Of a DNA stretch of 45,885 nt, positions 558 to 41,440 are shown in pieces. The notes below the pieces were generated by a model. The model was not told where the DNA came from and ran no database searches. It worked only from the letters and a program-made list of their open reading frames with translations. The number at the start of each line of letters is the position of its first letter. Position 1 is the first letter of the stretch. The stretch comes from a phage, in NCBI GenBank assembly GCA_021146325.1, contig GCA_021146325.1_4321.1, one strand, 5' to 3'. The position numbers and the translations under genes were made by a program.

Positions 558-1250
558 TTAGAATGTATCGATTTCTTGAGATTGTACTTCAACTTTTTCT
601 TCTTGAGCGGGCTTTTGTGCAACCTGCTTAGGTTTTGCTGGGTTAAAGCCGCTAGTTGCATTGGCCTGAATCTCTGCCTTGCGCTCGATAATGTGAGGCT
701 CAAGCACTAACCAGCCGGCTGAATCAAGTGACTGCTTCGCCTCTTTGTAAACATCACGGAGGTCATCAAGAGTACTGCACTTAGCCAAGTCTTTCTTGAA
801 TGAGTTGATGCCTTTAACTGCTAACTGACCATCATCATCTGCCTGGCTTAAACCTAACGCCGCTGTGATTGCGTAACGGCGAGCGTATGTAAGTGATGAC
901 CCATAACCTTGAGCATCTTGCTTACTGATTGGGACTATGGTCAGGAAACTAACCCACTCTCCAGATTCTGCATGGTAAACTGTTGTTTCAACCTTAATAC
1001 GAGTGCTTACATCATCATCAATCATCGACTGAAACATCACCAGTCCGCTATCAGCCAAGCCTGGCTCTACAGCTGCTAAAACATCATCTAAAGTAGCGTA
1101 CTTGTTCTTGAGGTGCGAGTTCTGCTTTGACTTTTCAGCCTTTGCAAACTTTGATTTAGCCTCGAATAACGCCTTCAATACTTGCTTGTTTTGCTCAGAA
1201 GTTTTCATTCCCCATCTCTCTTTCGTTTCGATGGGGTAATGATACCCCAC
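558..1250 (-). CDS. ERF-family single-strand annealing protein (recombinase)
   Basis: motif GYGSSLTYARRYAITAALGL resembles the P22 Erf core; true start is probably ATG at 1208 (MKTSEQ) because the -10 element of the upstream promoter cassette lies inside 1209..1250. Confidence 0.7.
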   Translation of the reverse strand: MGYHYPIETKERWGMKTSEQNKQVLKALFEAKSKFAKAEKSKQNSHLKNKYATLDDVLAAVEPGLADSGLVMFQSMIDDDVSTRIKVETTVYHAESGEWVSFLTIVPISKQDAQGYGSSLTYARRYAITAALGLSQADDDGQLAVKGINSFKKDLAKCSTLDDLRDVYKEAKQSLDSAGWLVLEPHIIERKAEIQANATSGFNPAKPKQVAQKPAQEEKVEVQSQEIDTF

Positions 1251-1284
1251 CTGTTAATTTTGTCTTTAGCAATTAGTGCTATTT
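1239..1284 (-). promoter_or_regulatory. promoter cassette copy (IR TAGCACTAATTGCTA, 22 bp, TATCAT, CATCGAAACGAAAGAGAG leader) driving the ERF gene
   Basis: IR core 1267..1281; TAG of the motif is the stop codon of the exonuclease gene. Confidence 0.6.
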
Positions 1285-2250
1285 TAGAAGTTCTTGATAC
1301 TGCTTACTTACCCACTCAGGAATCATCAAATCTTGCTCTGTAATTCCATTACTGTATCCAGGCCACTCATCAAGTTCCTTGCACTGCTTGTAAACAGCCA
1401 GAGCCTCTAAATATTGTAAGCGCCCAATGCGAAGCTGCTCATCTGTAAGTGTGTAGCACATAGGTAAGTAGGGCTCTGTTTTCTCCTGAGCCAGAAGTCG
1501 AACCACAACCTTACGCTTTTCGTTGAATGCTTTAACAAACAAATCGCGCTGAAGTGCCATCTTACACAGGTAACCATGGTCATAAGCTGACTTACCAAAT
1601 CCTCTAGGGCTTGCGTCTGCTGTTGTTTTATAGTCAGTAATGTAAACCACTCCATTAACAACATCCACGTGGTCAAGCCGAACCTTAACGCCGCAGCCGA
1701 GAATCTCACCAAAGATTGACAGCTCTTTCTGTGCTATTGGTGAATTAATTACCGCATCGTAAGCCGGAATATTGGTCAGAACTTCTCGCATTGCGATTAC
1801 CTTGTCGTAATCTTTAGCACTAACCAGCTCCTTGCCACTAATTAACGCCTCAGCGCTCTCCTGCTGCTCAATTAACCATTTAACCGGCCAATCCTCGCCA
1901 GACTTATACATCATCTCCACAAGCTCGTTATAACCCTTCCCTGACGTGCCGGAAACGCCAACTTTTTTAAGCGCTGCCGATAAAGCTGTTTGGCTAGTAA
2001 TCAATCCTTCCACTTCGTCAAAGTCAGTAGCTCGCATGTAAGTGGAATCGAACACTTCACGTTCTAGCATCATCGTATGTCCCAAAGTGCCAAACTTTAG
2101 TGCTGCACTTGAGTTGCTGCGCTGCTTAAATTTCCATTTTGCTGGAGAAGTAGCAAGAATCTCAGCCAGCGAAGAGCCAGAGATATGGTCTTTCTCTTCG
2201 TGATAGGATTCATTTGTTAGCTCGTCGTTCGTATAAACTTTAAATGTCAT
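1279..2250 (-). CDS. PD-(D/E)XK family exonuclease (RecB/Cas4-like), recombination partner of ERF
   Basis: 323-aa ORF with VYITDYKTT D-x-K nuclease motif; sits in the exo-SSAP-SSB module. Confidence 0.65.
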   Translation of the reverse strand: MTFKVYTNDELTNESYHEEKDHISGSSLAEILATSPAKWKFKQRSNSSAALKFGTLGHTMMLEREVFDSTYMRATDFDEVEGLITSQTALSAALKKVGVSGTSGKGYNELVEMMYKSGEDWPVKWLIEQQESAEALISGKELVSAKDYDKVIAMREVLTNIPAYDAVINSPIAQKELSIFGEILGCGVKVRLDHVDVVNGVVYITDYKTTADASPRGFGKSAYDHGYLCKMALQRDLFVKAFNEKRKVVVRLLAQEKTEPYLPMCYTLTDEQLRIGRLQYLEALAVYKQCKELDEWPGYSNGITEQDLMIPEWVSKQYQELLK

Positions 2251-2253
2251 GGC

Positions 2254-2448
2254 TCAATCCTTAATTTTAACAATCTTAACAGCTTTCAAATCTTCCTCAG
2301 TGAAATATCCGGTCAGAATAGATTTTGCCTCTTTCTTGCTATCGAATCGGTCCGCTTCAGATTTGTGAACTGTATATCCAGCGGGGCCACCAAAGTAGCA
2401 ATCGCCGAACAGTGCGTTGTTTTTCTCTTTAATAATGAAGTATGGCAT
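2254..2448 (-). CDS. hypothetical protein
   Basis: 64-aa ORF; GAGAGA-rich leader upstream. Confidence 0.45.
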   Translation of the reverse strand: MPYFIIKEKNNALFGDCYFGGPAGYTVHKSEADRFDSKKEAKSILTGYFTEEDLKAVKIVKIKD

Positions 2449-2584
2449 TTCTCTATCTCTCTATTGTTGCGTGCTTTCGATTAGTTAATGATGCCGTACG
2501 CACAACGCATAGTCCAATTGGTATCACCTATTAATTAATCAAGTATACGCGTATAATTTTGTAACTACGTGTAGACATTGGCAT

Positions 2585-2880
2585 GAGTTACGTTTTTAGC
2601 CACTTAAGCCAAGCTATAGCTCAATGTAAATAGTGAGTATACCGTGTATACCGATTTTAGCGGAGGGTGCATAGGTATAGGTGCTGCGCAATACTGTATA
2701 AAATCACATGGTATAAAAATTATAAGCGGAACACTCAAGAACAGTAGTTACATGATATACAAGATATACATATATAATAATAATAATAAGAGTAAAAGGT
2801 TGATATATATAGATATTATAATGTAACTATGGCGTAAACTGGCGTAACTGGGCGTATACGATTTCCAGCGGATGCATATG
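2585..2880. repeat. AT-rich non-coding element A, homologous to element B at 28650..28935
   Basis: palindrome AGCTATAGCT at 2612..2621, (ATA)n core, near-identical 62-bp block 2766..2827 matching 28815..28879. Confidence 0.8.
2831..2860. repeat. three tandem 10-bp iteron-like repeats GGCGTAAACT / GGCGTAACTG / GGCGTATACG
   Basis: perfectly phased direct repeats read from sequence. Confidence 0.7.
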
Positions 2881-2912
2881 GTATACATGGAGTTACATTG
2901 GTTACGCGTAAA

Positions 2913-2958
2913 CAATAGCACGAATAGCTAAAACTAATACGCAAAACCCTGTATAGTT
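2913..2958 (+). promoter_or_regulatory. promoter cassette copy (IR TAGCACGAATAGCTA, 22 bp, ATAGTT) upstream of the methyltransferase gene
   Basis: IR core 2916..2930. Confidence 0.5.
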
Positions 2959-2989
2959 GGTCACACAAAAAACGAGAGAGGATTTCAAA

Positions 2990-3679
2990 ATGGTTATTTG
3001 GTCTTTATTTGATGGTTCAGGGCTGGCTGTGAAAGATTGGGCTGAGGCTTGTCACGAGTGCTACTGTTTCAACTTTGATGAGTCTGACCACGGTAGTTAC
3101 GGGGATTTAAATGCAAAATTTGAACATGAGAACATCACCTACGTTAATGCCTGGATAGATGGCAACTTCGACTTTGATGTGAAGCCTGATATCATTTTAG
3201 CGTTCCCGCCGTGTACGGATTTAGCCGTGAGCGGGTCAAGGCACTTTGAGCGAAAGCGACTGGTTAACCATAACTTCCAGATTGAAGCTGCGGAAACATG
3301 TAAAGTTGCTTTTAACTTGGCTAATAAGTACGAAGTCACATACATGATTGAGAATCCAATCAGCGTACTGTCATCACTCTGGAGAAAGCCTAATAAGACT
3401 TTCCACCCATATGAATACGGAGGCTATTTGCCGGAAGATGATTTACACCCGTTTTTTAGCGACCTAATAAAGCCAAAAGACGCATATCCCAAGAAGACAT
3501 GCATTTGGTATGGCAATGGGTTTAAATGGCCAGAGGCGATTCCTGTGGACGTTAACGATGGATTCTCTGACCAATACAAGAAGCTTGGTGGGAAGAGTAA
3601 GAAGACAAAGGTAATTCGCAGTCTAACTCCTCGCGGTTTTGCAAAAGCAGTCTTCATAGCAAATAGCACGAATAGATAA
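2990..3679 (+). CDS. DNA (cytosine-5) methyltransferase, short orphan type
   Basis: motif I LFDGSG, motif IV FPPCTDLAVSG, motif VI-like ENP, C-terminal LTPRGFAKA; ATG at 2990 has RBS GAGAGG (the ORF track began at TTG 2957). Confidence 0.7.
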   Translation: MVIWSLFDGSGLAVKDWAEACHECYCFNFDESDHGSYGDLNAKFEHENITYVNAWIDGNFDFDVKPDIILAFPPCTDLAVSGSRHFERKRLVNHNFQIEAAETCKVAFNLANKYEVTYMIENPISVLSSLWRKPNKTFHPYEYGGYLPEDDLHPFFSDLIKPKDAYPKKTCIWYGNGFKWPEAIPVDVNDGFSDQYKKLGGKSKKTKVIRSLTPRGFAKAVFIANSTNR

Positions 3680-3706
3680 AGACAAATCCCAAGGATGAGA
3701 TATCAT
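3661..3706 (+). promoter_or_regulatory. promoter cassette copy (IR TAGCACGAATAGATA, 22 bp, TATCAT, CATTGAAACGAAA) overlapping the methyltransferase 3' end
   Basis: IR core 3664..3678; motif supplies codons NSTNR and the stop. Confidence 0.6.
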
Positions 3707-3717
3707 TACTCCATTGA

Positions 3718-3977
<260 letters not shown>

Positions 3978-3978
<1 letters not shown>

Positions 3979-4913
3979 TGGCTCAGGGTATCTATATAGA
4001 CCTTAATGACGGAAGGAATCCAATGACAATTACCTCAGGGATGAGGGCGTTAAGCTTCGCTGGAAACTTTAACGTTAATAGTGGTGGCTTTAGTAAGACA
4101 TTCTCAATTAAGGGAAATGAAGGTGCATCACGTTTTTTAATTCCTAATAATGGTGCCTTCAGCTTCGAGCTTGACAGGGGTGTTGAGCTTTATTATATAA
4201 GTGGATTTTCATCAACACCTACATCTGGGACAATCTCAATAGGTTCAGTGAATGGATATTCTGACAGGGTCACGTCATTTTCAGGGACTGTTGTTGAGGT
4301 CTTGAGGGCATCAAGCGGCCATGGCATATACGTTGCTGATAGTAGTGATTTTGCATCAATAACAACTGCTGACAGGTTGCTAGTATGCAAGTACTCTAAA
4401 AGGGTAACTTTTACAGGTTCATTCAATCTCCCTATTTATGGAATACCGTTCGGTAAGTGGGATAATGGTGGAGTTTCAGTTGAGTACAACGGAAGCAACC
4501 AGCTTATTTGCACAAACATAAACACAGTAAATACTGGGAACACTCCTGGAACTGTTACACTTGACTTGCTAATATTTCAGTTGGTTACACCAACGCCTGG
4601 GCCTGGCATAAACATTTTCAACTCTAACAATGTTTGCACATTCTCAACATTGACAAGACCATTGGTTGTGTCTGGATTTATAAGTCTGTCAGGAAGCAAT
4701 CAATACATAGGTAGTTCATACTTCCCAATACTTAGATGTGGGTTTAACACAAGGGCGATACGTGCTTACAAGGAGTTGCGAAATAAGGGAATTGTTATGT
4801 CCGGTGGATACGTTAGATCTGGTACTGGATCAAGGATTTTGAGATACGTTATTGGTAATAGACCAGATGTAACCATATCAACTCCATTGCCATACTTGCC
4901 TGATATGTATTAA
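3978..4913 (+). CDS. hypothetical Gly/Ser/Thr-rich protein of unknown function
   Basis: 312-aa ORF from ATG 3978 (RBS AAGGAG); opposite strand to the tail module. Confidence 0.55.
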
Positions 4914-4915
4914 AG

Positions 4916-4941
4916 ATAAAGCCCCTTTCGGGGCTTTTATG
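4916..4941. terminator. bidirectional rho-independent terminator (GCCCC-TTTC-GGGGC)
   Basis: hairpin 4921..4934 with T-run on plus and A-run upstream; between convergent genes. Confidence 0.7.
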
Positions 4942-7900
4942 TTAGAACGTTCCTACAATTACTTTTCCTCCATTAGGTAGGTTAACTGTGATTCCGTTTC
5001 CGTTAATCTGAACCGTATTGTTAGTTCCGTTAAATGCAAAGTTACCACTATCTGCGTAAAGCCTTCCATGAATTTCTGCATTACCAGACTTCTCAATCCT
5101 CCACCCAGCACTTCCTTGAACAAAGTTGTTTGATTGAATCGAGTTACCAATCTTCGCGTTAGTGATTGAACCATCCTGAATCACTGCGCTTTGAATGAAT
5201 ACCTGATTACCTTCAACTACGAAAGGCAATGACCACTGACCGGATCCAGAGCTAATGCCGTTACTGATTGCTAACCTGTTAGCATCAAAGATGACCTGAC
5301 TACGAACATTGCCATCAGAACCAGTTAGCTCCATACTCATGCCAGAACTGTACTCAACGCCATTGTATTTGAGGCCAAGTTTAATCCCGTACTGAGCACC
5401 AATTGAATCGGCAGTAACGTAAGTGTCCAACTTCTCATTTAACGCAGCCTCATTATCACCTAGCCTTGCAGATAAAGCAGTGTCCGCAGTGGTCCTTGCT
5501 TGCGTCTCTTCCGCTAGCGCCGTATCAATCCTTGTCAATGAAGCTACAATCTCGTCATCAATCTGCGCCTTAAGCTGCGTCAGAGCCTCTACGCGAGCCC
5601 TTTCTTCATCGGCGATAAGATTCACAGCCTGAACAAATTCGGCCCTCCTCTTGCCGTTTTCCTTCGTCATTCTACGCACGTCACCATCATTAGCCAGGGC
5701 GTTCTCAATTATTGATTCCGCTTGCGCCTGAATAGCTCCGTTTGACTCAATGGCATTCTGTTGGAGATACTTGAACCCATCTGAGTTTTCTATATCAACC
5801 TTAATATCACCAATGATTGACGACACATCATCGCTTGCCATACCCCTTACAAAATCAGTCCATGGTGAGACGTTACCAATCTTGTCAATCAGTCGCGCCC
5901 TGTACCAGATGACCTTTCCAGCAGGAAGTGTAGTATGCCAGTACTCGTAACTCGGGTAAGGCACCAGAGTCAGAAGGCTAGCATTCTCTGGTGTATAAGT
6001 ACCATCACCATTGTCGGCTACTTGCTGCAATTCAGTGTATGACGTATCGGCTGAGTTTTCAGGAAATCCCCACTTAACCCTAATGCCGAATATTTCATCA
6101 TCTGAAGCGGTGATTACTGTAGGTGAAGAGGGGGTCCCAATCTTGCCTGTGAGGCTTACTGAAACAATGTCAGACCATGCGGATACGTTTTCAGTATCAG
6201 AAACGGCCCTTACGCGAACCTGGTAAATTCCGGCATAGATACCTTCAATATCAACCTCTGTGCTTGCTGTGCGCGGCACGTTAATCCAGTTTCCGTTCTC
6301 CTTGCGCCACTGGACCGTGTAGGTTTTCGCGTACTGAACCTTGTCCCACGTGATTACCATTGTCTCAACTGATAAACCCTGAACAACCTTACTGTAACTG
6401 CTAACCTGAACATTCTCGGGTGCCAGTAATGTATCTGGCTCCACGATTGAAGTTGGCCTGTCCTGAATGTTTACGCCGTAATCAATCTCGTCGTATTTGT
6501 TCGGGTCGTACTCAACTGCGGTAATCGTGTAACCAAACGCATCATCTCCATCGCTGTCTGCTTTTTGAATACCGGTCACAACATATTGCTGAAGAGCAAG
6601 ATTTTCCTTATCAATCGCAAATACTGTGTCAGGCTGAGGAGTAAAGCTAAACGCTGTATTAAGTTGCAGCGTCATACCATCTTCAGATACAGATGCAATG
6701 GTCCTGTACTCTGGCATTCCATCAGGCTTGTTTATTAGAATCCTGTCGCCAGCAGTAGCATCAATCTTAAATGGCACAAAAACTTGCAACCCACTTACTG
6801 ACTCGATACGACCAGAAAGGTTAAGGGTGTAGTTGCTAGACCATGCCTGGTCATTAACTGCAATAACCTCACCAATCATTGGAATCATACCTTCCAGACC
6901 AGTAGTGAAACTAATAGTCTCGCTGCGAATGTTCGTCTTTAATAACCAGCGCCCGCGGCGGTTTGCCTCACTCCTGCGAGTACATCCAATAGCTGTAAGG
7001 TCGACCGGGTTGTAACCAAAACGCCTTGTTGCCTCTAACTCGAATACTTGCTCAACATCCTGTTGGTATGAGTTTTCAGCGTCATCAAACTGAACGTTGG
7101 CAACCGTGTAAAGTGACTTATCGCTACCAAATGTACGGTTGAACAATCCATCAACAACGTTGTCATTGGTGAATACGTACGATGGTTGACGCGGCTTATC
7201 GACAACAATCCCTATCTGCTCGCCGTCATAGAATGTCAGCCCACGGAAGATAGAGCAAATATCACGGATTAACTGATATGCTTCAACTTTCTGCTGAATG
7301 ACAACATCACACAGGTAGCGCGGCTCAACTCCACCCTTACCATCTGGAACCATCTGGTCACAGAATTGCGCCGCCTCATACAGACCCCACTTATCAATAG
7401 TAATGCCAAGCTCTCGCTGGTCAAGTCCGTAACGCTTATTCGTCACCAAGTCGTAAAGAACCCACGCCGGGTTATTGGAATACGCCATCTTAAAGGTGCC
7501 GTTCCAGGTTCCGCTGTAAGTCCTTGTCTCTGGGTTGTAGTTAGTTGGAACGCGAATCAACTTCCACTTCTTCTTGATTGAAATCGTCGGGATTCCGTTA
7601 GGGAAGAGGTCAGAACTGAACTCAACGTAAACCAGCGCTGTAAGTGGGTAGCGGAATTTAGCATCAATTACTTCCTGATAGGTCGTAATTTGCATGTCGT
7701 TAACCAGCGTCGAACTTTCTGAATCTGCCGTGATCTTACGAACCCTCACCAACGCACTCGAGAACTCAGCAGGAAGGTTAACCCTGATACTTCTGTCGTA
7801 CCCGCTAGTTGTCTTGCCATTAACTACTCCGCGCGTGTACTCAGTGTATGTAGCGCCATCAACGGACAGGTCAATCGCATACTCGCAAGTGGTACCGTTA

Positions 7901-14828: not shown

Positions 14829-14861
14829 TTCATTAATCTCTCATTTCTTTTCGATGAATGA

Positions 14862-14907
14862 ACTATACAGCAATCCGCGACTTAGCCTTTAACAAAAAGT
14901 GCTATCA
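14862..14907 (-). promoter_or_regulatory. promoter cassette copy (IR TAGCACTTTTTGTTA, 22 bp, TATAGT, CATCGAAAAGAAA)
   Basis: IR core 14890..14904. Confidence 0.55.
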
Positions 14908-14933
14908 ATAAAAAACCCTCCGAAGAGGGTTAA
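14906..14933 (-). terminator. rho-independent terminator after the major tail gene
   Basis: hairpin CCCTC-CGAA-GAGGG then TTTTTATTG on minus. Confidence 0.6.
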
Positions 14934-14945: not shown

Positions 14946-15596
14946 TTAAGAAGCTACAGAACTCATCCTGCCGCGAATAGATACCGCAATGGATACCGTT
15001 TCGATTTCGTTAACACCAATGCTCGGCGTGTCGTTGAAAGAGATACTGCCAGACTGGAGACGCATCTCGCTAGCTCGAGGCACGAACAGACGGATAGCAA
15101 CAACAGTACCAGCTTCGTCATAGTTACGCAGAATCGGATATATCGGGTTGGTGTATTCGTGCGCGAAAGTGTAGGTATTAGTTACCGCAGATTTATAAGT
15201 TGGAATCTGTTTCTCACGCTCATCGGATAAACACTGGAAGTTAACGAACTGCTGTTCGCCGCCGTCAGTTGATACGTCCTGAACGCAAGGAACCTCAAGC
15301 CAGCTAAGAATCTTAACCACTTCACCAGTTAAACCGGCCGGGAACTTGGTGGTGTTGGAGGTATCAATACCTTCAACAGTTACCCTTGAACCAGATACAT
15401 TGGTAACGCGAACTTGCTTATCAGCCAGCAGGGTCGAAGTTGAGCTGGTAAATAGCAGGTAATCACCTCTTGCAATATTATCAGCGCTGGACAAAGTTAA
15501 AACAGGAGTAACAGCATTGGAAATTGCAGTTACGTCAATAGTATTTCCCCTGGAGCCTTCTACGAAGACCTGAGTGCCATTACTAAGATGGGCCAT
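14946..15596 (-). CDS. major tail protein
   Basis: 216-aa ORF at the V position just upstream of G/GT. Confidence 0.7.
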   Translation of the reverse strand: MAHLSNGTQVFVEGSRGNTIDVTAISNAVTPVLTLSSADNIARGDYLLFTSSTSTLLADKQVRVTNVSGSRVTVEGIDTSNTTKFPAGLTGEVVKILSWLEVPCVQDVSTDGGEQQFVNFQCLSDEREKQIPTYKSAVTNTYTFAHEYTNPIYPILRNYDEAGTVVAIRLFVPRASEMRLQSGSISFNDTPSIGVNEIETVSIAVSIRGRMSSVAS

Positions 15597-18527: not shown

Positions 18528-18621
18528 TCTTGCTTATTCCTTTTCAGTTAGGTATGTACGAGTCAATTATACACTAGTTTGAGGCCCGCGCAATGATTCT
18601 ATCATGACCAAGCCGAAGGCA

Positions 18622-18650
18622 ATAAAAAACCTCCAGAAGGAGGCTTGTTT
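18622..18650 (-). terminator. rho-independent terminator
   Basis: hairpin CCTCC-AGAA-GGAGG then TTTTTTATTG on minus. Confidence 0.6.
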
Positions 18651-18664
18651 AATTAATGATAATC

Positions 18665-22709: not shown

Positions 22710-22738
22710 TTTTTACTCCTCTCGTTTGCGTGAAGTAA

Positions 22739-22784
22739 CTATAAGCCATCCTTGGCGGCGCGTCTTTAGCAAAACGTGCTATTT
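22739..22784 (-). promoter_or_regulatory. promoter cassette copy (IR TAGCACGTTTTGCTA, 22 bp, TTATAG)
   Basis: IR core 22767..22781; its TAG is the TerL stop codon. Confidence 0.55.
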
Positions 22785-25527: not shown

Positions 25528-25603
25528 TGGTGTTCCGCACTGGACTCGAACCAGTAACTAAGACTTAGGAGGTCTTTGCGTTATCCTGTTACGCCAGCAG
25601 AAC
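25528..25603 (-). tRNA. tRNA-Arg (anticodon CCU)
   Basis: 76-nt cloverleaf folded by hand: 7-bp acceptor stem, D-arm GCGT/ACGC, anticodon loop CUCCUAA, T-arm ACTGG-TTCGAGT-CCAGT, 3' ACCA. Confidence 0.8.
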
Positions 25604-25772
25604 AAATCCTTGAGTAGCGATTGCGCTATTGAAGGATTGCTGGTTACGCTTCCAGCGTCGAGTTTCTCGACCGATTTCGCCATATACGCTGCTTAGTGAG
25701 TTATGGACTTTGTTGCCACTTGGTGGCCTCGTCTGTCTACAGTTGTTAATGTACCAGTCAGGGTTAGATGTG

Positions 25773-25970
25773 TCAACTTACTCTTTCGAATTTCCCATAA
25801 TTCTGGTCATACGGGTAGTCAATGCTCACCAATTCGCCATTATCGCTGTAGCAGAATGCGTGGCCAGTCTTCGATACCTTTTCGACCTGGTAATCGCATC
25901 CATCCATGAAGTCATCCGATGCCGCCTTTGTGCACTTGATAGCATCGCCTTTCTTAATAATCTTACTCAT
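25773..25970 (-). CDS. hypothetical protein
   Basis: 65-aa ORF. Confidence 0.4.
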   Translation of the reverse strand: MSKIIKKGDAIKCTKAASDDFMDGCDYQVEKVSKTGHAFCYSDNGELVSIDYPYDQNYGKFERVS

Positions 25971-26509: not shown

Positions 26510-26538
26510 TTTCTACCCTCTAGCTGTTTGATATATAA

Positions 26539-26584
26539 ATTATATGGCATCCATGCCTTTGGTGTTTAGCTATTCGTGCTGTTT
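26539..26584 (-). promoter_or_regulatory. promoter cassette copy (degenerate IR CAGCACGAATAGCTA, 22 bp, TATAAT)
   Basis: IR core 26567..26581. Confidence 0.45.
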
Positions 26585-27852: not shown

Positions 27853-27883
27853 CTCTATACTCCATCTCGTTGTTGGTGTGGTA

Positions 27884-27929
27884 ATTATGCCATCCTTGGC
27901 GTCATATCGTTAGGCAAAAAGTGCTATTT
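27884..27929 (-). promoter_or_regulatory. promoter cassette copy (IR TAGCACTTTTTGCCT, 22 bp, CATAAT)
   Basis: IR core 27912..27926. Confidence 0.5.
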
Positions 27930-29149: not shown

Positions 29150-29195
29150 GAATAGCACTTTTTGCTAAAGACATTTAGGTATTGCGGAGTTATGG
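29150..29195 (+). promoter_or_regulatory. promoter cassette copy (IR TAGCACTTTTTGCTA, 22 bp, TTATGG)
   Basis: IR core 29153..29167. Confidence 0.5.
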
Positions 29196-29222
29196 TTCAC
29201 TCATCAACAACGAGGAGAGAGA

Positions 29223-29817: not shown

Positions 29818-29981
29818 TGCTTTTACCATCTGAGATAAACTATTTCGATCTGGAAATGATTAGTGCTTACAGCGGAAAGGGTTGGCCTTGCGGGGACTGG
29901 TTTAACGAGGACCTGCTTGAGTCTCACGAGATTATGTTGAAGGCAATTGAGAAGGCCAGAAGAAATAGCACTAATTGCTAA
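29817..29981 (+). CDS. small hypothetical protein ending RRNSTNC
   Basis: 54-aa ORF; 3' end lies in the promoter motif. Confidence 0.4.
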   Translation: MLLPSEINYFDLEMISAYSGKGWPCGDWFNEDLLESHEIMLKAIEKARRNSTNC

Positions 29982-30008
29982 AACTCACCGCCACGGATGG
30001 CGTATATT
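29963..30008 (+). promoter_or_regulatory. promoter cassette copy (perfect IR TAGCACTAATTGCTA, 22 bp, TATATT, CATCGAAACGAAAGAGAG)
   Basis: IR core 29966..29980. Confidence 0.6.
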
Positions 30009-30040
30009 TACTCCATCGAAACGAAAGAGAGCAAGAGATC

Positions 30041-30591: not shown

Positions 30592-30758
30592 AATTATACA
30601 TTGTAAGTGGTTGCACACACTATGATGGAAGCGAAGTGATTGCCGCTTTCGATGAAGAATTCAAAGCACAGGAGTTTAAATATAACAAAGAAATATCTTC
30701 AGAAAATCACTTTGACTACTACAAGATAGATTGCATCTTACTAAATAGCACTAATTGA
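30588..30758 (+). CDS. small hypothetical protein ending LLNSTN
   Basis: 56-aa ORF; 3' end lies in the promoter motif. Confidence 0.4.
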   Translation: MKLYIVSGCTHYDGSEVIAAFDEEFKAQEFKYNKEISSENHFDYYKIDCILLNSTN

Positions 30759-30788
30759 TAATGCATTATAAGCGGCTATTGATATAAT
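30743..30788 (+). promoter_or_regulatory. promoter cassette copy (IR TAGCACTAATTGATA, 22 bp, TATAAT)
   Basis: IR core 30746..30760. Confidence 0.55.
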
Positions 30789-30817
30789 GGCCGCTCATAA
30801 CAACACGGAGAGAAGTA

Positions 30818-33907: not shown

Positions 33908-33963
33908 GCACAAAAAAAAGGGAGCCAAAGGCCCCCTGCTTGCAAATCTATGTTTTGTATATT

Positions 33964-34137: not shown

Positions 34138-34168
34138 TTTTGAACCCTCTGTTGTTTTCGATGTTGTG

Positions 34169-34214
34169 ATTATGCCGCATCTCTACGGCGATTGTTTAGC
34201 AATTCGTGCTATTG
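34169..34214 (-). promoter_or_regulatory. promoter cassette copy (perfect IR TAGCACGAATTGCTA, 22 bp, CATAAT, CATCGAAAAC)
   Basis: IR core 34197..34211; motif supplies the kinase C-terminus INSTNC and stop. Confidence 0.6.
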
Positions 34215-34750: not shown

Positions 34751-34751
34751 T

Positions 34752-35225
34752 TTATTCTCCGTGAGATTCGCAGTCTTTTGGTAATTCTTTATATTCACAA
34801 ACTGACATTACAGTATATCCGCAATTCCTTAGGTGACTGATAACATTAGGATTATCCTCAAAGATTATCACACTTGCTTTGTCACCATTACACAAATCAT
34901 TTAGCCACATCTCTTTAATGATATAGTCATTTCTGTTATCCAATCTACTCCTCATATATATTCCATCATAATTAATATTATTATACTGAAGCCATTCAAG
35001 CGTCATACATTCGACTTCGTCACTTCTTGAAGTCATGATGTAAACTGGCGATAACTCAGCTAACGCATTCATCATGTTTATCATTGGAATTATAGGTGAA
35101 TCTCCAGAACAGGCTCTATTGTAATCACCCCAACTTGAAGTCAAGTGAAGGTCACTAGATGGTAAGAGGTAGCTTCTATGTTCATTGTTAGCAATAGTTC
35201 CATCAATATCAAACACGTAAATCAT
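34752..35225 (-). CDS. HAD-superfamily phosphatase
   Basis: motif I VFDIDGTI at the N-terminus; paired with the kinase gene. Confidence 0.6.
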   Translation of the reverse strand: MIYVFDIDGTIANNEHRSYLLPSSDLHLTSSWGDYNRACSGDSPIIPMINMMNALAELSPVYIMTSRSDEVECMTLEWLQYNNINYDGIYMRSRLDNRNDYIIKEMWLNDLCNGDKASVIIFEDNPNVISHLRNCGYTVMSVCEYKELPKDCESHGE

Positions 35226-35255
35226 TACAACTCCTCATCTCGTTATCGTTTATTC

Positions 35256-35301
35256 ATTTTGCCTCAATCCTTTGAGGCTTTATTAACAAAAAGTGCTACT
35301 T
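35256..35301 (-). promoter_or_regulatory. promoter cassette copy (IR TAGCACTTTTTGTTA, 22 bp, CAAAAT)
   Basis: IR core 35284..35298. Confidence 0.45.
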
Positions 35302-36433
35302 AGAACATCTCAGGGCGACAAATAAATCGACCAACCTCACCAAAACGCTTATGGTAAACGATTACCGCTGCTTGACGCATTGAGCGCCATCCTCCATTAG
35401 CTGAGTAGGCATCTGGCGCGCCAAGCTGACCATGAACTTCATCGATACCCAGGTTTGTTTCTGTAATTTTCTGACTATGCCAGTGGCCCGAGTGTGTATA
35501 GACATATTCGCTGTTACCGAATAGTTTACGAAAGTCTGTAGCCATTACTGTAAGTCGAGTTTCAGCTTTTCGCATCTGGTGACCATGAGTATAACCAATC
35601 AATGTTGAGCCGAAGCTTGTCATCAGCATTGCTGCTGGGCTTACGTCGACAGTAATTCGCTCCTCGTCTTCATAGAATGCCGCCAATGCTGCACGCAACC
35701 AAACCATCCCAGCTTCGTCGTGATTTCCACTTATTACTTTAATATCAATGATTTGGTGCTTCTCAAGCATCCTTGAAACCGCACGACGCACTGAGCGGAT
35801 TGCTACGTAAACCAATTTAGCATAGCGACTGTCGCTGTCTAAGATATGTCCTGATGCTGGTGTTTTAGCCTCTAGAGAGTCGTAATGCAGAAAATCACCC
35901 CCCAAAACTAATGTCGCATTTCTTGATTTAGGAGCCTTATCTACAGCATAATCAAAGAAGCTATTCATTACCTTCTCTGCTGTTGCAGTGTCGTAGTTTT
36001 CACCGCACTCATGCTTATGAGCCATTGCGCCAATGTGAAGGTCGAAAACAGGATACATAGCCATAGTGTCATCGTCAAAATCAATGTCTGGGCACTCGCT
36101 GGCAATTGCCTTTGGTAAATCAGAACAGAAGGCTTCACGCGCTTGCTCAAGCAGAATCTCAAGGCGTTCATTATCAACGCTTGTCTTAACCCACCGGATT
36201 TTCTCATTCCCTTCCGCATCAATCATGGTAGAAGTGCCTTTTACCATGTATCCATCTGGCACTAGCTTCTTGATACCTTCATTACCATGCCCAACACCAC
36301 TCTTGGCTAACTTGCTGCGACGAAGCTCAACGTTGCGAATGTTCATGCCGTACTTCTCTGCAATTGCCTTGTTAGTCAGGCCATTCTTCAATTCTTCAGT
36401 TAACTGTTCATTTGTAATCTTTGCTACTGCCAT
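35300..36433 (-). CDS. calcineurin-like metallophosphoesterase with N-terminal HTH-like segment
   Basis: motifs DLH, GGDFLHYD, GNHDE, GHQ, GHWH; N-terminal LTNKAIAEKYGMNIRNVELRR. Confidence 0.65.
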   Translation of the reverse strand: MAVAKITNEQLTEELKNGLTNKAIAEKYGMNIRNVELRRSKLAKSGVGHGNEGIKKLVPDGYMVKGTSTMIDAEGNEKIRWVKTSVDNERLEILLEQAREAFCSDLPKAIASECPDIDFDDDTMAMYPVFDLHIGAMAHKHECGENYDTATAEKVMNSFFDYAVDKAPKSRNATLVLGGDFLHYDSLEAKTPASGHILDSDSRYAKLVYVAIRSVRRAVSRMLEKHQIIDIKVISGNHDEAGMVWLRAALAAFYEDEERITVDVSPAAMLMTSFGSTLIGYTHGHQMRKAETRLTVMATDFRKLFGNSEYVYTHSGHWHSQKITETNLGIDEVHGQLGAPDAYSANGGWRSMRQAAVIVYHKRFGEVGRFICRPEMF

Positions 36434-36456
36434 TTTTAAGTCCTTAGTTCATCACG

Positions 36457-36502
36457 ATAAAATATAAGATAGTAAAGCTAAACAGTGGCACTAATGCTAC
36501 TG
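36457..36502 (-). promoter_or_regulatory. degenerate promoter cassette copy (TAGCATTAGTGCCAC, 22 bp, TTTTAT)
   Basis: weak match, spacing conserved. Confidence 0.3.
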
Positions 36503-36514
36503 GGGCGGCGTACT

Positions 36515-36766
36515 TCATACAACCTCTTTCAGCCAGTAATCAATTAAATCAGCACTAATTGCTAATTTTTGGTCCAGGTCTGTCATGCACAGATTACCGC
36601 ACGCTGGAGAGTAGTAAATCTGTACCCATTTACCGTCCTTCGTCTTCGCGTTAACATCCACATAGTCAGGTGGAAACCAGTCATCAATAGGTATCGCTCT
36701 AAACTTCTTCCCACTATCACTATGCACTAAATTATAATGCTCAGGCTGAAAATCTAATCCCAACAT
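36515..36766 (-). CDS. hypothetical protein
   Basis: 83-aa ORF. Confidence 0.45.
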   Translation of the reverse strand: MLGLDFQPEHYNLVHSDSGKKFRAIPIDDWFPPDYVDVNAKTKDGKWVQIYYSPACGNLCMTDLDQKLAISADLIDYWLKEVV

Positions 36767-36768
36767 AA

Positions 36769-37011
36769 CTAAACCTTCGTTATCTTAAATTTGAATCCCT
36801 TCTCTTTCAGGAACTCATTCGTGTTTATCGTGACGCCAGGTTTAACCCTGACATACTTGCGCGGCCTTTCATCCATGTACGTAAACTTACCGTTGAAGAT
36901 GACACTGATATCTTTTATATCGAAGTACTTAGATATCATCTTAATGTCGTCCTGAATGCCAGCATCTGCGCAGTGGGCCCAGACTGCGGCCCGTCCTGTT
37001 TCAACTATCAT
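36769..37011 (-). CDS. hypothetical protein
   Basis: 80-aa ORF. Confidence 0.45.
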   Translation of the reverse strand: MIVETGRAAVWAHCADAGIQDDIKMISKYFDIKDISVIFNGKFTYMDERPRKYVRVKPGVTINTNEFLKEKGFKFKITKV

Positions 37012-37299
37012 AAGCCGTATGCCATTTTCAGGTATTCTTTAGCACACATCCATGACCATTCTGATTTATTCTTAACAGCATCAATAGCGTAAACCTGTGC
37101 AATATCGAGCATCTCTTTATCTACAATTTTCATCAGTTCAATACCTCACATTCAAAACTAAAAACAATCATATCGTCATAATCAGTTAAGTAGAAAGCTG
37201 TGCCATCAAAGTTCTTCTCAGCCTCAAGCACGGTTTTACCGCCATTGCTTTTAATCCAGTTCGATAATGCCATCGTTGGGTTTGTTATTACGATTTTCA

Positions 37300-37521
37300 T
37301 TATTCAAAATCCCCCTTGCAATCTTTCTTCATCTCTGCAATATCTGCAACCATGCGGTCGCGCCACGTCTCGATATCAGTTCGCAAGTAATCTTCTTCAA
37401 AACTGTAATCAAGGCACCGGGCCAAATCCCAAACATCACCTTTATATCCAGCCTTGTGTAATTCCTGGGCCGCCATCGCCTGAAAGAGTTCCCATTGCTT
37501 GTCAAAAGTTAAAATTGCCAT
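37300..37521 (-). CDS. hypothetical protein
   Basis: 73-aa ORF. Confidence 0.45.
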   Translation of the reverse strand: MAILTFDKQWELFQAMAAQELHKAGYKGDVWDLARCLDYSFEEDYLRTDIETWRDRMVADIAEMKKDCKGDFE

Positions 37522-37526
37522 TACTC

Positions 37527-37721
37527 TTATACCTCATCAAATTTTTCGCCGAATTCGTTTTTAACAGTTTCCAGATCATATTTGTAAGTTGGGCTAACTT
37601 CGAATGCATATGTGCAGTCTTCAATGTCAACCAAAACATAACCATCTTCAGTTACTTGCATCTCGTAGATGTAGCCAGTCTTGCGTGATTCGTAGAATTT
37701 ACCAGTATAGATAGTAGCCAT
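37527..37721 (-). CDS. hypothetical protein
   Basis: 64-aa ORF directly downstream of the cassette leader CATCGAAACGAAACACAC. Confidence 0.5.
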   Translation of the reverse strand: MATIYTGKFYESRKTGYIYEMQVTEDGYVLVDIEDCTYAFEVSPTYKYDLETVKNEFGEKFDEV

Positions 37722-37759
37722 TTTCTTTCTCTCTTTGTGTGTTTCGTTTCGATGAGTTG

Positions 37760-37805
37760 ATAATACACCAACTCACCAATTCGTCTTTGGAAATTCGTGC
37801 TATTT
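37760..37805 (-). promoter_or_regulatory. promoter cassette copy (IR TAGCACGAATTTCCA, 22 bp, TATTAT, CATCGAAACGAAA)
   Basis: IR core 37788..37802; its TAG is the VRR-NUC stop codon. Confidence 0.55.
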
Positions 37806-38219
37806 TCTTATCATCTCTGCGAATGCCGCAAGAAAACCCTCTCTTCCATAAGCCACCGCTGCGAAACCGCCTGATTCACTTACGCTTTTTAGGAATGACT
37901 TTTGCTCATTGCTAACTGGGCTTGCTTGCGTTTTACCAGCCCTCTTTAACTCTATGGCGCCAAATGGATAACCGCCACGCAATGACTCAGGTATCAGAAA
38001 TAAGCAGTCTGACACACCTTTGAGAAGCCCCTTGGCTTGGTCTTTTCTTGCTTGACCAATGCTCTTTTTATTTTCGTTAATCGTGTGCCAGTAAACAATC
38101 TGCGGATAGTTGTATTTCACCCAATCAGAGCAGAAGATTTGTTCATCGTCTTCCTTTGGGCATGACTTCACCGGTCCGCCATAGAACTCGAGGTAATCAC
38201 CTTTGTCTGTGATTTTCAT
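37800..38219 (-). CDS. VRR-NUC domain nuclease
   Basis: SDCLFL...AIELK PD-(D/E)xK pattern; immediately after the helicase gene. Confidence 0.55.
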   Translation of the reverse strand: MKITDKGDYLEFYGGPVKSCPKEDDEQIFCSDWVKYNYPQIVYWHTINENKKSIGQARKDQAKGLLKGVSDCLFLIPESLRGGYPFGAIELKRAGKTQASPVSNEQKSFLKSVSESGGFAAVAYGREGFLAAFAEMIRK

Positions 38220-38220
38220 A

Positions 38221-39930
38221 TCAATCCTCCATCGTAAATGATTTGTTGGCGATAATATCTTGAGACTTCTGGTTTTTACGGTGTGTGATTCTCAATGGGG
38301 CACGGAATAGATGTGCATTTGTCATAATCATTCTAGCATTACGCAATCTGCCAATTCTGAATGCCTCAGTCCTGTTATCGATGTGTGTTGAGCAGAAAGC
38401 CTTCCATTTAACAGAGCAAACGCGATGGTCTGATTCAGGGAAGAATGTTTCATAAGCTCGGAATCTGTCACCACTGTGAGCCATAACCTCATATGAAGCA
38501 ATAATCCCTGACTGGTTCTTTGTTAACCCAATCTTGAAGTCATAAACTCGCAACCAGTCCCCCTTACGATACATTTTTCCTGATAACTTAGCATTCGGGT
38601 CTATGAGCATCTCACCACAGCATCTGCAATTCTTAGCTGCAATATCATTCTTCTCACCGCATCCTTTCTTGATGATAGCTTTGGTCTGTGGGTCCGCTAT
38701 ATCTTCACACAGTCTAAACTGAAAGAAGTGCTCGCAACGCTTACCGTCAATTACATTATTACAACGCCGTGCGAACGGAGAGTTCTCATAAGAACATGCC
38801 GGGCATACCCTAGGTTCATCACCTCCTTTCCTTGATGACTTAAACTTCTGGTCCTGAACTTCTTCTATAATTGGGTCAAAGTAAAGCTCTGCCATATCGT
38901 CAAGCGTTCCGGCGAAATCGAGAACAACATGGTCTTCTTTTACCATCCCTGAATCCTTGTGTTTTTTCTTAAGAATTCGCATACCACGACCAAGCAACTG
39001 AATGAGTAGAGTAATGCTACCAACCTTCCTCAGGATAATGCTTGTATCCCACGGGGGGCAGTTTACGCCAGTTGTGAGGCAACCAATCTGAAATATGAAC
39101 TTATATTCTCCGTTAGCTGCCTTCTCAAGTATCTCTCTACGCTTCTTCTCACCAGTGGAGTTGGTAACTATCGCCCAAGTAACACCTTCTGGAAGTGCGG
39201 CTGCCGCCTCCTCGCAATGCTGTTTGCCAGCGCAAGTTACCAATGCAGCATTCCTTGTTTCCATAAACTTAGCAGCAAATCCCATTATCTTTTGTGTCAT
39301 CGTTTGGTTTTCGTGAATCTTTGCAGCCATCGCATCCATTTCTTTCTTGCTGAAGTCCTTAACCCCATCACTTCCATCAGGAGTGAACTCACTAAGGTCG
39401 TAGCCCAAATCACCAACTTCACCGTAGACAGTAGGAACAACGAACCCCAAGTCAACAAGGTAGCTGGTTGGCACTTGCATTACAGTTTTGCGCCAGAATC
39501 CACGGACATTTGGGTTACTAACTACAATGTGGTCGTTGTTACGGTACGGGCTACCAGTTAACCCAAAGATACGAAGTTCGCGACCGTACTTCTCCTTGCA
39601 TCGACGCTTCATTTCGGTAATGATTAACGTGTATTGCGCGCGACCAGTGCCAAGAAGCCCGGTATTCACACCATCCTTAAAGACCATCTCACCCTTCTTC
39701 GTGCTCATCTGCTCGAATGTTTCCTCATTCTCTTCAGCTTCTACGATATCCATATGGTCCACCATGTGGCAATTATGTGCCACGACCCCGTCAGCAATGA
39801 AATTATGGTGCTCAGGCATCTCTATATCCCAAACAAGTTCCTTGCCAATGGGTGAGATGTCTTTAATTTTGCTTGATTTTGTATTCCACGCCATTTTCCA
39901 TGTGCTTACTAATTCTCTTAAAAAACTCAT
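38221..39930 (-). CDS. SF2 helicase C-terminal gene: C-intein (53 aa) plus C-extein
   Basis: own ATG 39930 with RBS GAGGT; intein block G HNFIADGVVAHN then Cys; C-extein has helicase-like motifs GLTGSP and QLLGRGMR and zinc-finger-like Cys clusters. Confidence 0.75.
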   Translation of the reverse strand: MSFLRELVSTWKMAWNTKSSKIKDISPIGKELVWDIEMPEHHNFIADGVVAHNCHMVDHMDIVEAEENEETFEQMSTKKGEMVFKDGVNTGLLGTGRAQYTLIITEMKRRCKEKYGRELRIFGLTGSPYRNNDHIVVSNPNVRGFWRKTVMQVPTSYLVDLGFVVPTVYGEVGDLGYDLSEFTPDGSDGVKDFSKKEMDAMAAKIHENQTMTQKIMGFAAKFMETRNAALVTCAGKQHCEEAAAALPEGVTWAIVTNSTGEKKRREILEKAANGEYKFIFQIGCLTTGVNCPPWDTSIILRKVGSITLLIQLLGRGMRILKKKHKDSGMVKEDHVVLDFAGTLDDMAELYFDPIIEEVQDQKFKSSRKGGDEPRVCPACSYENSPFARRCNNVIDGKRCEHFFQFRLCEDIADPQTKAIIKKGCGEKNDIAAKNCRCCGEMLIDPNAKLSGKMYRKGDWLRVYDFKIGLTKNQSGIIASYEVMAHSGDRFRAYETFFPESDHRVCSVKWKAFCSTHIDNRTEAFRIGRLRNARMIMTNAHLFRAPLRITHRKNQKSQDIIANKSFTMED

Positions 39931-40910
39931 CTTGTGCCGACCTCGTTGTTATTGATACTGAGTAAAGCTCTCTCTTTTTCTTGCCGCCAATATAGCTTCT
40001 AACCTTAACTCCGTCATTAGCAATAAATGCTATTAGCGCATCAGCTACTGATTGAACTTCACGCCTGCTAAATGATTCGGTGTGGATTTCTACAACCCTC
40101 TTCCCTGAGCTTACAGTGCAATGACCATCATCACCAAAGTAAGCAGCCCAACCAACTGGATCAAGCTCTCTGCATATCTTTCCAATATCGTAACCATCCT
40201 TAGAATTTCCGTACTTATCAGCATATGAATCCAGAACTTTCGTACATGATGTTGATACGCAAAACCAGTTGTCGCCAAATCCAGGGTTTTTCTTCTCCCT
40301 GTATCTAGGGTTTAGTTTTGCAAACCTTTCAACCTTGCTTAGTGCGTGCTCCTTATTTCCAATATTCCAAGATGGCCTATGCGTTCCTTTTCTGTATTTT
40401 TAATCAAGCAACCATCACCAGCCATTGCCGCAAGAATGTTTTGATGTAAAAAGTCATCAACCTCCATTGATGGGTTGACGGTTGAATTATGATGCCCCGT
40501 TCTGTAATCCAAATAGAAATCGAAAGGGTTCTTAAGAAGTACGCCTAACCCCTTGCTTGAATGCGGCATAACTTTTTCACCACAGCCACACTTGCACGCA
40601 GGAGCTTTTTCGTAAATTTGTCCTGCGAGCCGTCTAGCGACAGATTCATCCCAATACAAAGTTTTCCCGCTCCGACCCAGCAGCCGTTCGAATAAAGTTT
40701 GTGTGTACTCGTGCATTTTATTTCCTCTCCGCTTTCTAATTTAATTGATGATACATGTCTTACACCATTAGTAAAAACTCTTTTTGGCTTATGATAGAAG
40801 TAATCACCAGTGCTTTCGTTTATGCATTTTATTTTATGATTGATAAGGTCTTCGCTATCAATCCTCATCATCCCTGAATCGGTGGTTATCATCGTGTCTC
40901 CAGTTAAGCA
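39772..40910 (-). mobile_element. split intein in helicase motif II: N-intein 40548..40910, endonuclease-like remnants, C-intein 39772..39930
   Basis: blocks A (CLTGDTMI), B (IKCTSTHKLY) and G (HNFIADGVVAHN-C); N-intein ends in a stop after 121 residues; intein DNA is 1139 bp, not a multiple of 3. Confidence 0.7.
39863..40740 (-). pseudogene. homing-endonuclease-like remnant split over two reading frames between the intein halves
   Basis: frame 1 ORF 40339..40716 (Cys cluster CKCGCG; ...AMAGDG...), frame 2 open 39863..40399 without a start codon (...IAFIANDG...); family not assignable by eye. Confidence 0.4.
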
Positions 40911-41354
40911 CTCATCTATCGCGATAACAGCAGGAGCATAGTCACCAAGCCCCTTAAACAAGCCGTTAGCAGCCGTTCCCTCACTAGCCACTATGGTTGG
41001 ATAGTAAACTGATTTAACGTTAAGGCCAGCGCAATAGACGCTATTACGGATGCCGAAATTACGAAGTTCCTCTGCGTTCTGGCTGATAATCTCTGACTGG
41101 CGAGATAGGACCATGTAAGGAAGGCCAAGCTGTTCCATTCGTTTCCCAATCATGGCGAGAATAATCGTCTTGCCAGCCGAAACCGATAGGTCTGCTATGA
41201 ATGGCGCTTCGTACTTGCCAATAGCCTTTCCGATTGCGTCAAATGTCACGCACTGGAATGGGTATGGTGTGATTTCTCCGAACTGATAATCATTTTGAAT
41301 CTGCTTGATTTTATCTTGGTCAAAGTTTGCTACTAAGCGTTCTACTGGAAGCAT
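40545..41354 (-). CDS. SF2 helicase N-terminal gene: N-extein (Walker A SVSAGKT ... IAIDE) plus N-intein
   Basis: 269-aa ORF; the extein junction would rebuild IAIDE-CHMV, a DECH box. Confidence 0.75.
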   Translation of the reverse strand: MLPVERLVANFDQDKIKQIQNDYQFGEITPYPFQCVTFDAIGKAIGKYEAPFIADLSVSAGKTIILAMIGKRMEQLGLPYMVLSRQSEIISQNAEELRNFGIRNSVYCAGLNVKSVYYPTIVASEGTAANGLFKGLGDYAPAVIAIDECLTGDTMITTDSGMMRIDSEDLINHKIKCINESTGDYFYHKPKRVFTNGVRHVSSIKLESGEEIKCTSTHKLYSNGCWVGAGKLCIGMNLSLDGSQDKFTKKLLRASVAVVKKLCRIQARG

Positions 41355-41394
41355 TTTAAATATCCTGATAGTTCTTTAGTTCGTTGCATTGATG

Positions 41395-41440
41395 TATAAT
41401 AACAGCCATAGAACCCATTGTTTAACAAAAAGTGCTATTG
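41395..41440 (-). promoter_or_regulatory. promoter cassette copy (IR TAGCACTTTTTGTTA, 22 bp, ATTATA) driving the helicase gene
   Basis: IR core 41423..41437, only 14 bp from the divergent HTH gene start. Confidence 0.5.

Follow-up and report, generated by a model that had tools for sequence, protein, structure and literature searches.

The marbox is the binding site of MarA, SoxS and Rob, the stress activators of Escherichia coli. In promoters of class II it is found in forward orientation and overlaps the -35 region with its centre near -41; the -10 is canonical and a recognisable -35 is missing (PMC12052159, PMC8811837, PMC10268841). The wording of the marbox/soxbox consensus, AYNGCACNNWNNRYYAAAYN, is confirmed in two sources (PMC2064960, PMC3709825), and a MarA consensus derived from ChIP-seq reads GCAHWWWWTGYYAAA (PMC6900184). 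In T1-like phages, the 2024 re-annotation of phage TLS lists 21 sites of a 21-nt direct repeat, aaATAGCACnnnTTGnTAAAA, co-oriented with transcription and about 76 nt 5' of start codons; similar repeats are stated for T1, Rtp and Rogue1, and only three sigma70-like promoters were found in TLS (PMC11447400). Its authors remark on the likeness of the repeat to the stoperators of L5 and leave its role undecided: stoperator, enhancer-binding site or UP element (PMC11447400). We here deal with a recurrent cassette of such a box, a spacer and a -10 hexamer in a phage contig of 45,885 nucleotides (GenBank assembly GCA_021146325.1, contig GCA_021146325.1_4321.1), the whole of which is called the window. 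Judged from the sequence, the cassettes are probably class II marbox promoters served by Rob, MarA or SoxS of the host. The repeat itself is already documented in sister phages; what is new is its reading as a marbox, and the searchable literature yielded no link of the marbox, MarA, SoxS or Rob to T1-like phages.

By megablast the window is placed in the Drexlerviridae, subfamily Braunvirinae, i.e., it is an Rtp-like siphophage of E. coli; among the records, Escherichia phage ES is closest, with 89-93% identity. T1, Rtp, TLS, ES, Klebsiella phage 1513 and phage Vc1, each with 9-18 copies of the cassette, complete a comparison set of seven Drexlerviridae genomes. The boxes of the window belong to the family of 21-nt direct repeats known from TLS.

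With at most one mismatch, the core pattern TAGCACKWWTWGCTA matches the window 15 times, versus 0.08 matches expected from shuffles. Complete cassettes also number 15. Fourteen of them had been listed in an earlier reading of this DNA, the original prediction, and every coordinate given there marks a real copy (the box position on the plus strand, the low end of the -10 on the minus strand); the list had, however, missed a cassette on the minus strand (box 40014..40033, hexamer 39989..39994) and an orphan box on the plus strand (36549..36568). The latter is one of two orphan boxes that lack a -10, the other being at 43420..43439 on the minus strand, and a very degenerate copy near 36457 deviates from the box at 11 of 20 positions. 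Classical -35/-10 combinations are not enriched over shuffled sequence (29 versus 35, 42 versus 43 and 10 versus 13 matches).

The spacer between the 15-bp core and the hexamer had been called fixed at 22 bp. It is mostly so (10 copies), but measures 21 bp in two (2916, 41437) and 23 bp in three (22781, 29153, 40032). Among 138 loose core matches in the seven genomes, the best -10-like hexamer is found exactly 22 bp downstream in 85 and 21-23 bp downstream in 104, whereas random positions yield a flat distribution; the motif is not scattered at random distances from TAT-rich hexamers. In all 15 cassettes of the window the orientation agrees with the downstream gene, and the first downstream genes are members of genuine phage families (Erf, DNA methyltransferase, virion protein, DUF3987 ATPase, polynucleotide kinase/phosphatase, helicase and others). 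The proposal of a directional promoter class with a sigma70-type -10 has held up.

For a position matrix, 85 copies from the seven genomes were aligned and numbered from a conserved A, 7 nt past the last T of the hexamer. The box meets 13 of the 14 specified positions of AYNGCACNNWNNRYYAAAYN, each in at least 91% of the copies, and also fits the ChIP-seq form GCAHWWWWTGYYAAA, including its TG at T-39 and G-38. Box copies of the window have 0-3 mismatches to the published consensus. Used as a probe with at most one mismatch, this consensus finds 12 sites in the window (1.07 expected) and 108 in the seven genomes (about one expected per genome), 82 of which are followed by a -10-like hexamer 17-19 bp past the box; phage lambda has none (0.97 expected). 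The ChIP-seq form yields 13 matches in the window versus 1.70 expected. By a rough estimate, the chance that an independently derived motif fits 13 specified positions is about 5e-7 per register, with orientation and position extra. The box at 22763..22782 has 14 consecutive bases (CACGTTTTGCTAAA) in common with the marbox of the E. coli mar operon.

The geometry agrees, too. In the micF promoter of E. coli MG1655, a class II example of characterised structure, 18 bp lie between the end of the marbox, ACAGCACTGAATGTCAAAAC, and the -10 TAGAAT; in the phage cassettes 18 bp likewise separate box and hexamer, and the box covers about -50 to -31, its GCAC on the far side from the -10 and its AAA on the near side. 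The box centre is at -41.5 for micF, by its annotated 5' end, and at about -40.5 for the phage cassettes, by the predicted +1. The forward orientation, GCAC upstream and AAA toward the -10, holds for the 15 cassettes of the window and for 103 copies of the seven genomes. An asymmetric 20-bp box in forward orientation, overlap with the -35 region, the spacing of micF and a canonical -10 without a -35: these sequence traits of a class II marbox promoter are all present. Also, the box is invariant from the E. coli phages to Klebsiella phage 1513 and phage Vc1. A promoter class peculiar to the phage, as originally supposed, is difficult to maintain; the element is a site of the E. coli type.

The cassettes of the window, with the genes they would drive, are the following.

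1232..1282, minus strand: cassette 1; marbox 1263..1282 (ATAGCACTAATTGCTAAAGA), -10 TATCAT 1239..1244, predicted +1 A 1232; Erf recombinase gene (ATG 1208, minus strand; ERF Pfam match).
2915..2964, plus strand: cassette 2; marbox 2915..2934, -10 TATAGT 2952..2957, spacer 21; DNA methyltransferase gene (ATG 2990, plus strand).
3663..3713, plus strand: cassette 3; marbox 3663..3682, overlapping the stop codon of the upstream gene (3677..3679), -10 TATCAT 3701..3706, predicted +1 A 3713; gene of 76 aa (3748, plus strand).
14855..14905, minus strand: cassette 4, in the tail-gene region; marbox 14886..14905, -10 TATAGT 14862..14867, predicted +1 A 14855.
14914..14931: terminator hairpin just upstream of cassette 4.
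22731..22782, minus strand: cassette 5; marbox 22763..22782 (ATAGCACGTTTTGCTAAAGA), -10 TATAGT 22738..22743, spacer 23; virion structural gene (ATG 22709, minus strand).
26532..26582, minus strand: cassette 6; marbox 26563..26582 (0 mismatches to the published consensus), -10 TATAAT 26539..26544, predicted +1 A 26532.
27877..27927, minus strand: cassette 7; marbox 27908..27927, -10 CATAAT 27884..27889, predicted +1 A 27877.
29152..29203, plus strand: cassette 8; marbox 29152..29171, weak -10 TATGGT 29191..29196, spacer 23, predicted +1 A 29203.
29965..30015, plus strand: cassette 9; marbox 29965..29984, overlapping a stop codon (29979..29981), hairpin 29989..30002, -10 TATATT 30003..30008, predicted +1 A 30015.
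30745..30795, plus strand: cassette 10; marbox 30745..30764 (3 mismatches), -10 TATAAT 30783..30788, bracketed by the inverted repeat AGCGGC/GCCGCT; DUF3987 helicase/ATPase gene (ATG 30818, plus strand).
34162..34212, minus strand: cassette 11; marbox 34193..34212 (0 mismatches), hairpin in the spacer, -10 CATAAT 34169..34174, predicted +1 A 34162.
35249..35299, minus strand: cassette 12; marbox 35280..35299, spacer hairpin GCCTCA/TGAGGC, weak -10 CAAAAT 35256..35261; polynucleotide kinase/phosphatase gene (ATG 35225, minus strand).
37753..37803, minus strand: cassette 13; marbox 37784..37803, -10 TATTAT 37760..37765, bracketed by GAGTTG/CAACTC, predicted +1 A 37753.
39982..40033, minus strand: cassette 14; marbox 40014..40033 (GCAT variant), -10 TATATT 39989..39994, spacer 23; precedes the C-terminal half of a split helicase gene (ATG 39930, minus strand).
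41389..41438, minus strand: cassette 15; marbox 41419..41438 (0 mismatches), -10 TATTAT 41396..41401, spacer 21, predicted +1 A 41389; N-terminal half of the helicase (minus strand).

At 3677..3679, 29979..29981 and 30756..30758, an upstream open reading frame (ORF) terminates within the marbox of the following cassette; genes and promoters therefore overlap. For naming the genes of the window the annotation of Escherichia phage ES is unfit, since many product names in its record (OR466728) look misassigned, e.g., a 'capsid maturation protease' on the gene in the RecE position and 'tail' names on small early genes. The split helicase gene (38221..41354, minus strand) consists of two ORFs, 40545..41354 and 38221..39930, about 600 bp apart. 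The end of the former weakly resembles the N-terminal part of an intein splicing domain and the beginning of the latter its C-terminal part, both matches being below the Pfam threshold; a split or decayed intein could be the cause.

In detail, the box consensus of the 85 copies reads A-T-A-G-C-A-C-k-w-w-T-T-G-y-T-A-A-A. The 5' part consists of A-52 (61%), A-51 (82%), A-50 (94%), T-49 (91%; Y-49 97%) and A-48 (99%), the core of G-47, C-46 and A-45 (100% each) and C-44 (95%), followed by k, w and w (W-41 100%), the 3' part of T-40 (98%), T-39 (92%), G-38 (99%), y-37 (C 54%, T 39%; Y 93%) and T-36 (98%), and the proximal A-tract of A-35 (100%), A-34 (99%), A-33 (91%) and A-32 (64%). The spacer between the box and the extended -10 is unconstrained; T-17 is present in 65% and G-14 in 79% of the copies. 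The hexamer is made up of T (82%), A-11 (100%), T (85%), A (67%), A or G (66% and 29%) and T-7 (100%). At the start region, C-1 (67%) and A+1 (88%) are followed by T-C-G-A-A-A-C and an A/G-rich ribosome-binding region. The predicted transcript opens with AUCGAAACGAA and continues with a GAGAG or GGAG ribosome-binding site, and the start codon follows 19-52 nt from the predicted +1. The conserved leader that had been noticed is thus real and begins at the predicted 5' end of the transcript. Positions -35 to -30 read A-A-A-a-c-n; the matrix bears out that a TTGACA-like -35 is missing, a sequence-specific upstream site being found in its place. By sequence, this profile marks a genuine sigma70 -10 promoter: the start is defined, the -35 is lacking and a specific site lies upstream.

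An UP element consists of A/T only, extends from -59 to -38 and is read in the minor groove. The A-tracts of the box at -52 to -50 and -35 to -32 resemble UP subsites, the frequent G-14 would suit a TG/extended -10, and the option has been raised by the TLS authors (PMC11447400). Yet it appears improbable to us that the box is an activator-independent, UP-like element which RNA polymerase reads via its alpha C-terminal domains with the help of an extended -10: G-47, C-46, C-44 and G-38 are 95-100% invariant, which points to base-specific reading in the major groove. As an UP element proper, the box was rejected for these invariant G/C positions.

The core had been regarded originally as an inverted repeat for a dimeric protein, and 4-5 of its 6 position pairs are indeed dyad-symmetric. 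The dyad is broken, however, by C-44 (95%) and T-40 (98%), where a palindrome needs G at -40, and both flanks are A-tracts (A-50/A-51 and A-34/A-33), where it needs T on one side. Neither the conserved positions nor the flanks have the symmetry of an operator; the element is 20-21 bp long, asymmetric and oriented in one way relative to the -10. The idea of a phage-specific inverted repeat for a dimer is therefore probably wrong. As possible binders, two helix-turn-helix (HTH) proteins had been named. One of them, at 35300..36433, turned out to be an SbcD/Mre11-type exonuclease instead. The other is a genuine Cro-like HTH protein and stays in discussion as a minority candidate.

41451..41924, plus strand: Cro-like HTH protein (T1 gp23/Rtp52 family), alternative candidate binder with its own divergent promoter.

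Its supposed role would be as follows: the HTH gene is read first from its own sigma70 promoter, and its product, or some other phage protein, then turns on the cassettes by binding as a dimer to the quasi-palindrome TAGCA-N5-TGCTA around -42, where it replaces the -35 contact in the manner of Mu Mor/C or a class II dimeric activator. The distribution of the protein is compatible with this role. It is present in 831 phage records, which is practically the entire family, and only on Drexlerviridae contigs of 45-53 kb. The gene also has the -35/-10 promoter of its own that such an order of events implies: TTGAAT-17-TATAAT in T1, TTGACT-17-TATCAT in TLS and TTGTCT-17-TACAAT in Rtp. In multiple copies, moreover, the motif is confined to the Drexlerviridae, and its sites are unusually uniform. 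A phage activator of this kind is nevertheless unlikely. Besides the asymmetry of the element, the protein itself fits poorly. The AlphaFold model (pLDDT 87) retrieves by Foldseek against PDB single-domain Cro proteins only, with weak E values of at least 0.04; a reader of a bipartite box was rejected on this basis. Across 26 aligned homologues, the basic arm at the N-terminus and an FCRPDxxFxxNG block toward the C-terminus do not vary, but the predicted recognition helix (residues 65-71) is highly variable, and the DNA box stays the same even where the HTH proteins of two phages share only about 50% identity. A constant box facing a variable recognition helix is better explained by a reader from the host. 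Finally, the match at 13 of 14 marbox positions together with the 18-bp spacing of micF would have to be a coincidence.

In the window, the TATAAT of the HTH gene (plus strand) overlaps the TATTAT of cassette 15 (minus strand) almost base for base (41389..41450). The two promoters would therefore compete for polymerase, and a mutually exclusive switch between the helicase cassette and the HTH gene is possible; such a competition fits the host-activator and the phage-activator models alike. The marbox of cassette 15, in reverse, falls in the predicted 5' untranslated region of the HTH gene.

The two orphan boxes of the window are these.

43420..43439, minus strand: orphan marbox without a -10, adjoining the primase terminator; its position is kept in T1 (34903) and Rtp (33763).
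36549..36568, plus strand: orphan marbox-like site without a -10, inside a minus-strand ORF and antisense to it.

The orphan next to the primase terminator may serve as a binding site by itself, for instance as a roadblock or insulator. Sigma54 promoters have the consensus GG-N10-GC at -24/-12 (TGGCAC-N5-TTGCA in full) and start about 12 nt downstream. In view of three orphan or antisense copies without a -10, of the superficial likeness of TAGCAC-N3-TTGC to that consensus and of the resemblance to L5 stoperators noted for TLS (PMC11447400), the boxes might be stoperator-like blocks of read-through, variant sigma54 promoters or signals for replication or packaging. We consider all this very improbable. 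The distance to the -10 is fixed at 21-23 bp, A-11 and T-7 never vary and A+1 is conserved; these are traits of a promoter, not of a roadblock. The sigma54 promoter was rejected because the sites read AG-N8-GC: the GG is missing, the spacing is 2 bp short and a sigma70 -10 follows 22 bp downstream. Stoperators of the mycobacteriophage L5 type bind repressor inside the transcription units of temperate phages, at no set distance from a -10; this reading was rejected because of the fixed distance to the -10 in the cassettes, and family scans revealed no repressor or integrase module; the phage is virulent, and no lysogeny module was seen.

Many cassettes contain a GC-rich hairpin. Perfect stems of 6 bp or more, with three or more G-C pairs, occur from the box to +14 in 63% of 103 cassettes, versus 11% of shuffled sequences and 24% of random genomic windows. 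In 19 cases the hairpin ends around -12/-13 and the T/A-rich -10 follows like the tail of a terminator; other hairpins bracket the -10, with many different arm sequences. In T1, four annotated terminators are inside cassette spacers, and several cassette hairpins coincide with terminators annotated in T1 and TLS. Examples from the window are these.

1232..1249, 29989..30002, 30770..30800, 34173..34190, 35261..35278 and 37745..37775: hairpins within cassettes.

Because their registers vary, the hairpins are not a protein site, and an RNA or DNA structure in fixed register was rejected for the same reason, there being no single consensus structure for covariation. Rfam matched only a tRNA in the window and no known RNA family over the leader. 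Most economically, the hairpins are read as terminators or insulators of the upstream unit, packed into the unconstrained spacer. The tRNA gene (25531..25603, minus strand, 58.9 bits) has a near-consensus sigma70 promoter upstream on its own strand, TTGACA-17-TACATT with a TG (25776..25748).

If the cassettes are host-served marbox promoters, an activator of the MarA/SoxS/Rob family would bind as a monomer to the box, one HTH motif in each of two adjacent major grooves, and recruit RNA polymerase, thereby making up for the absent -35 as at micF. From the sequence we infer where transcripts start, which protein binds and that its binding activates. MarA and SoxS are inducible. Rob would likely be the default activator, since it is constitutive, with MarA, SoxS or RamA adding when induced; for full activity, Rob needs bile salts or fatty acids (PMC7355843). 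A homologue encoded by the phages themselves was rejected: hand-typed probe sequences of MarA, SoxS and Rob gave nothing in the seven genomes by tblastn (best E 0.56) or by a small HMM (best E 0.12), and no AraC-type family was among the best 25 of the 50 Pfam families matched by the 83 ORFs of the window.

Several observations weigh against a host activator. The classical mutants resistant to T1 have their lesions in the receptor genes fhuA and tonB rather than in rob; no single host activator is therefore essential, and the redundancy of three activators plus a basal activity of TG and -10 could reconcile this pattern with the model. Without inducers, Rob is largely inactive (PMC7355843). 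One member of the family is listed with a Vibrio host, which may lack activators of the SoxS/MarA type. As to the box itself, consensus position 19 (Y) is satisfied in only 18% of the copies, and host marboxes vary far more than the phage sites do; uniformity of this degree usually marks a factor dedicated to the phage. All start sites are predictions from sequence, and a literature search found no transcription start data for Drexlerviridae. Finally, a scan of IMG/VR returned the multi-copy cassette only from Drexlerviridae-like contigs of 45-53 kb, single matches on large contigs being at chance level. The cassette thus co-distributes with every family-specific protein, the Cro-like HTH protein included, and its restriction to the family cannot separate a host factor from a phage factor.

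A marbox in reverse orientation between -35 and -10 is the geometry of repression by MarA. Such a reverse marbox is found within the 16-bp spacer of sigma70-like promoters in T1 (15067..15086), TLS (15022..15041) and Vc1 (near 5729). The promoters concerned, TTGACG-16-TATTAT in T1 and TTGAAC-16-TATATT in TLS, are located just 5' of the major capsid gene and are followed by a hairpin; the window lacks this reverse marbox (18528..18664). That these capsid promoters would be repressed in this way is speculation.

T1-like phages are classic and abundant coliphages and widely used candidates for therapy (e.g., the Weberviruses of Klebsiella). Their transcription has so far been poorly understood, with about three sigma70 promoters annotated per genome and an unexplained repeat. 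Quite possibly, though we would not yet count on it, the Drexlerviridae have handed promoter recognition of nearly all their operons to MarA, SoxS, Rob or RamA of the host by means of class II marboxes of consensus strength. If so, phage gene expression reads the bile, antibiotic or oxidative-stress state of the host and is tied to the regulators of antibiotic efflux and porins; phage productivity is then predicted to shift with salicylate, bile, paraquat or the mar/ram mutations that are frequent in clinical isolates. More speculatively, the hundreds of marboxes in replicating phage DNA could titrate a limited pool of activator and so act as an early-to-late timer. The cassettes might also become compact, strong promoter parts that respond to MarA, SoxS or Rob, provided that the marbox reading is true.

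The promoters served by Mor/C of Mu and the middle promoters served by MotA/AsiA of T4 have kept a sigma70 -10, lost the -35 and acquired a specific upstream box, as in the cassettes. Mu and T4, however, make use of phage-encoded proteins and of other boxes (MotA centre -30; Mor/C dyad -43.5), whereas for the cassettes no such phage protein was identified and the box is, by sequence, the site of a host factor. With the TLS repeat (DR1-DR18) the window box has in common its sequence, its orientation relative to transcription and the central-triplet classes TTT, GAA and TAA/AAA; from box to start codon it is 68-84 nt in 14 of the 15 cassettes and 102 nt in cassette 14 (40032), compared to about 76 nt in TLS. 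The TLS paper, unlike the present analysis, connected the repeat neither with the marbox nor with a -10 at constant distance (PMC11447400). The micF-type class II promoters of MarA, SoxS and Rob, in Klebsiella also of RamA, have the same build as the cassette: an asymmetric marbox in forward orientation that overlaps the -35 region and ends 18 bp before the -10. The cassette differs from them by its setting, a virulent phage genome in which 15 copies appear to drive nearly every operon, by boxes that are near-consensus and almost invariant where host marboxes are degenerate, and by a conserved leader and, often, a hairpin within the spacer.

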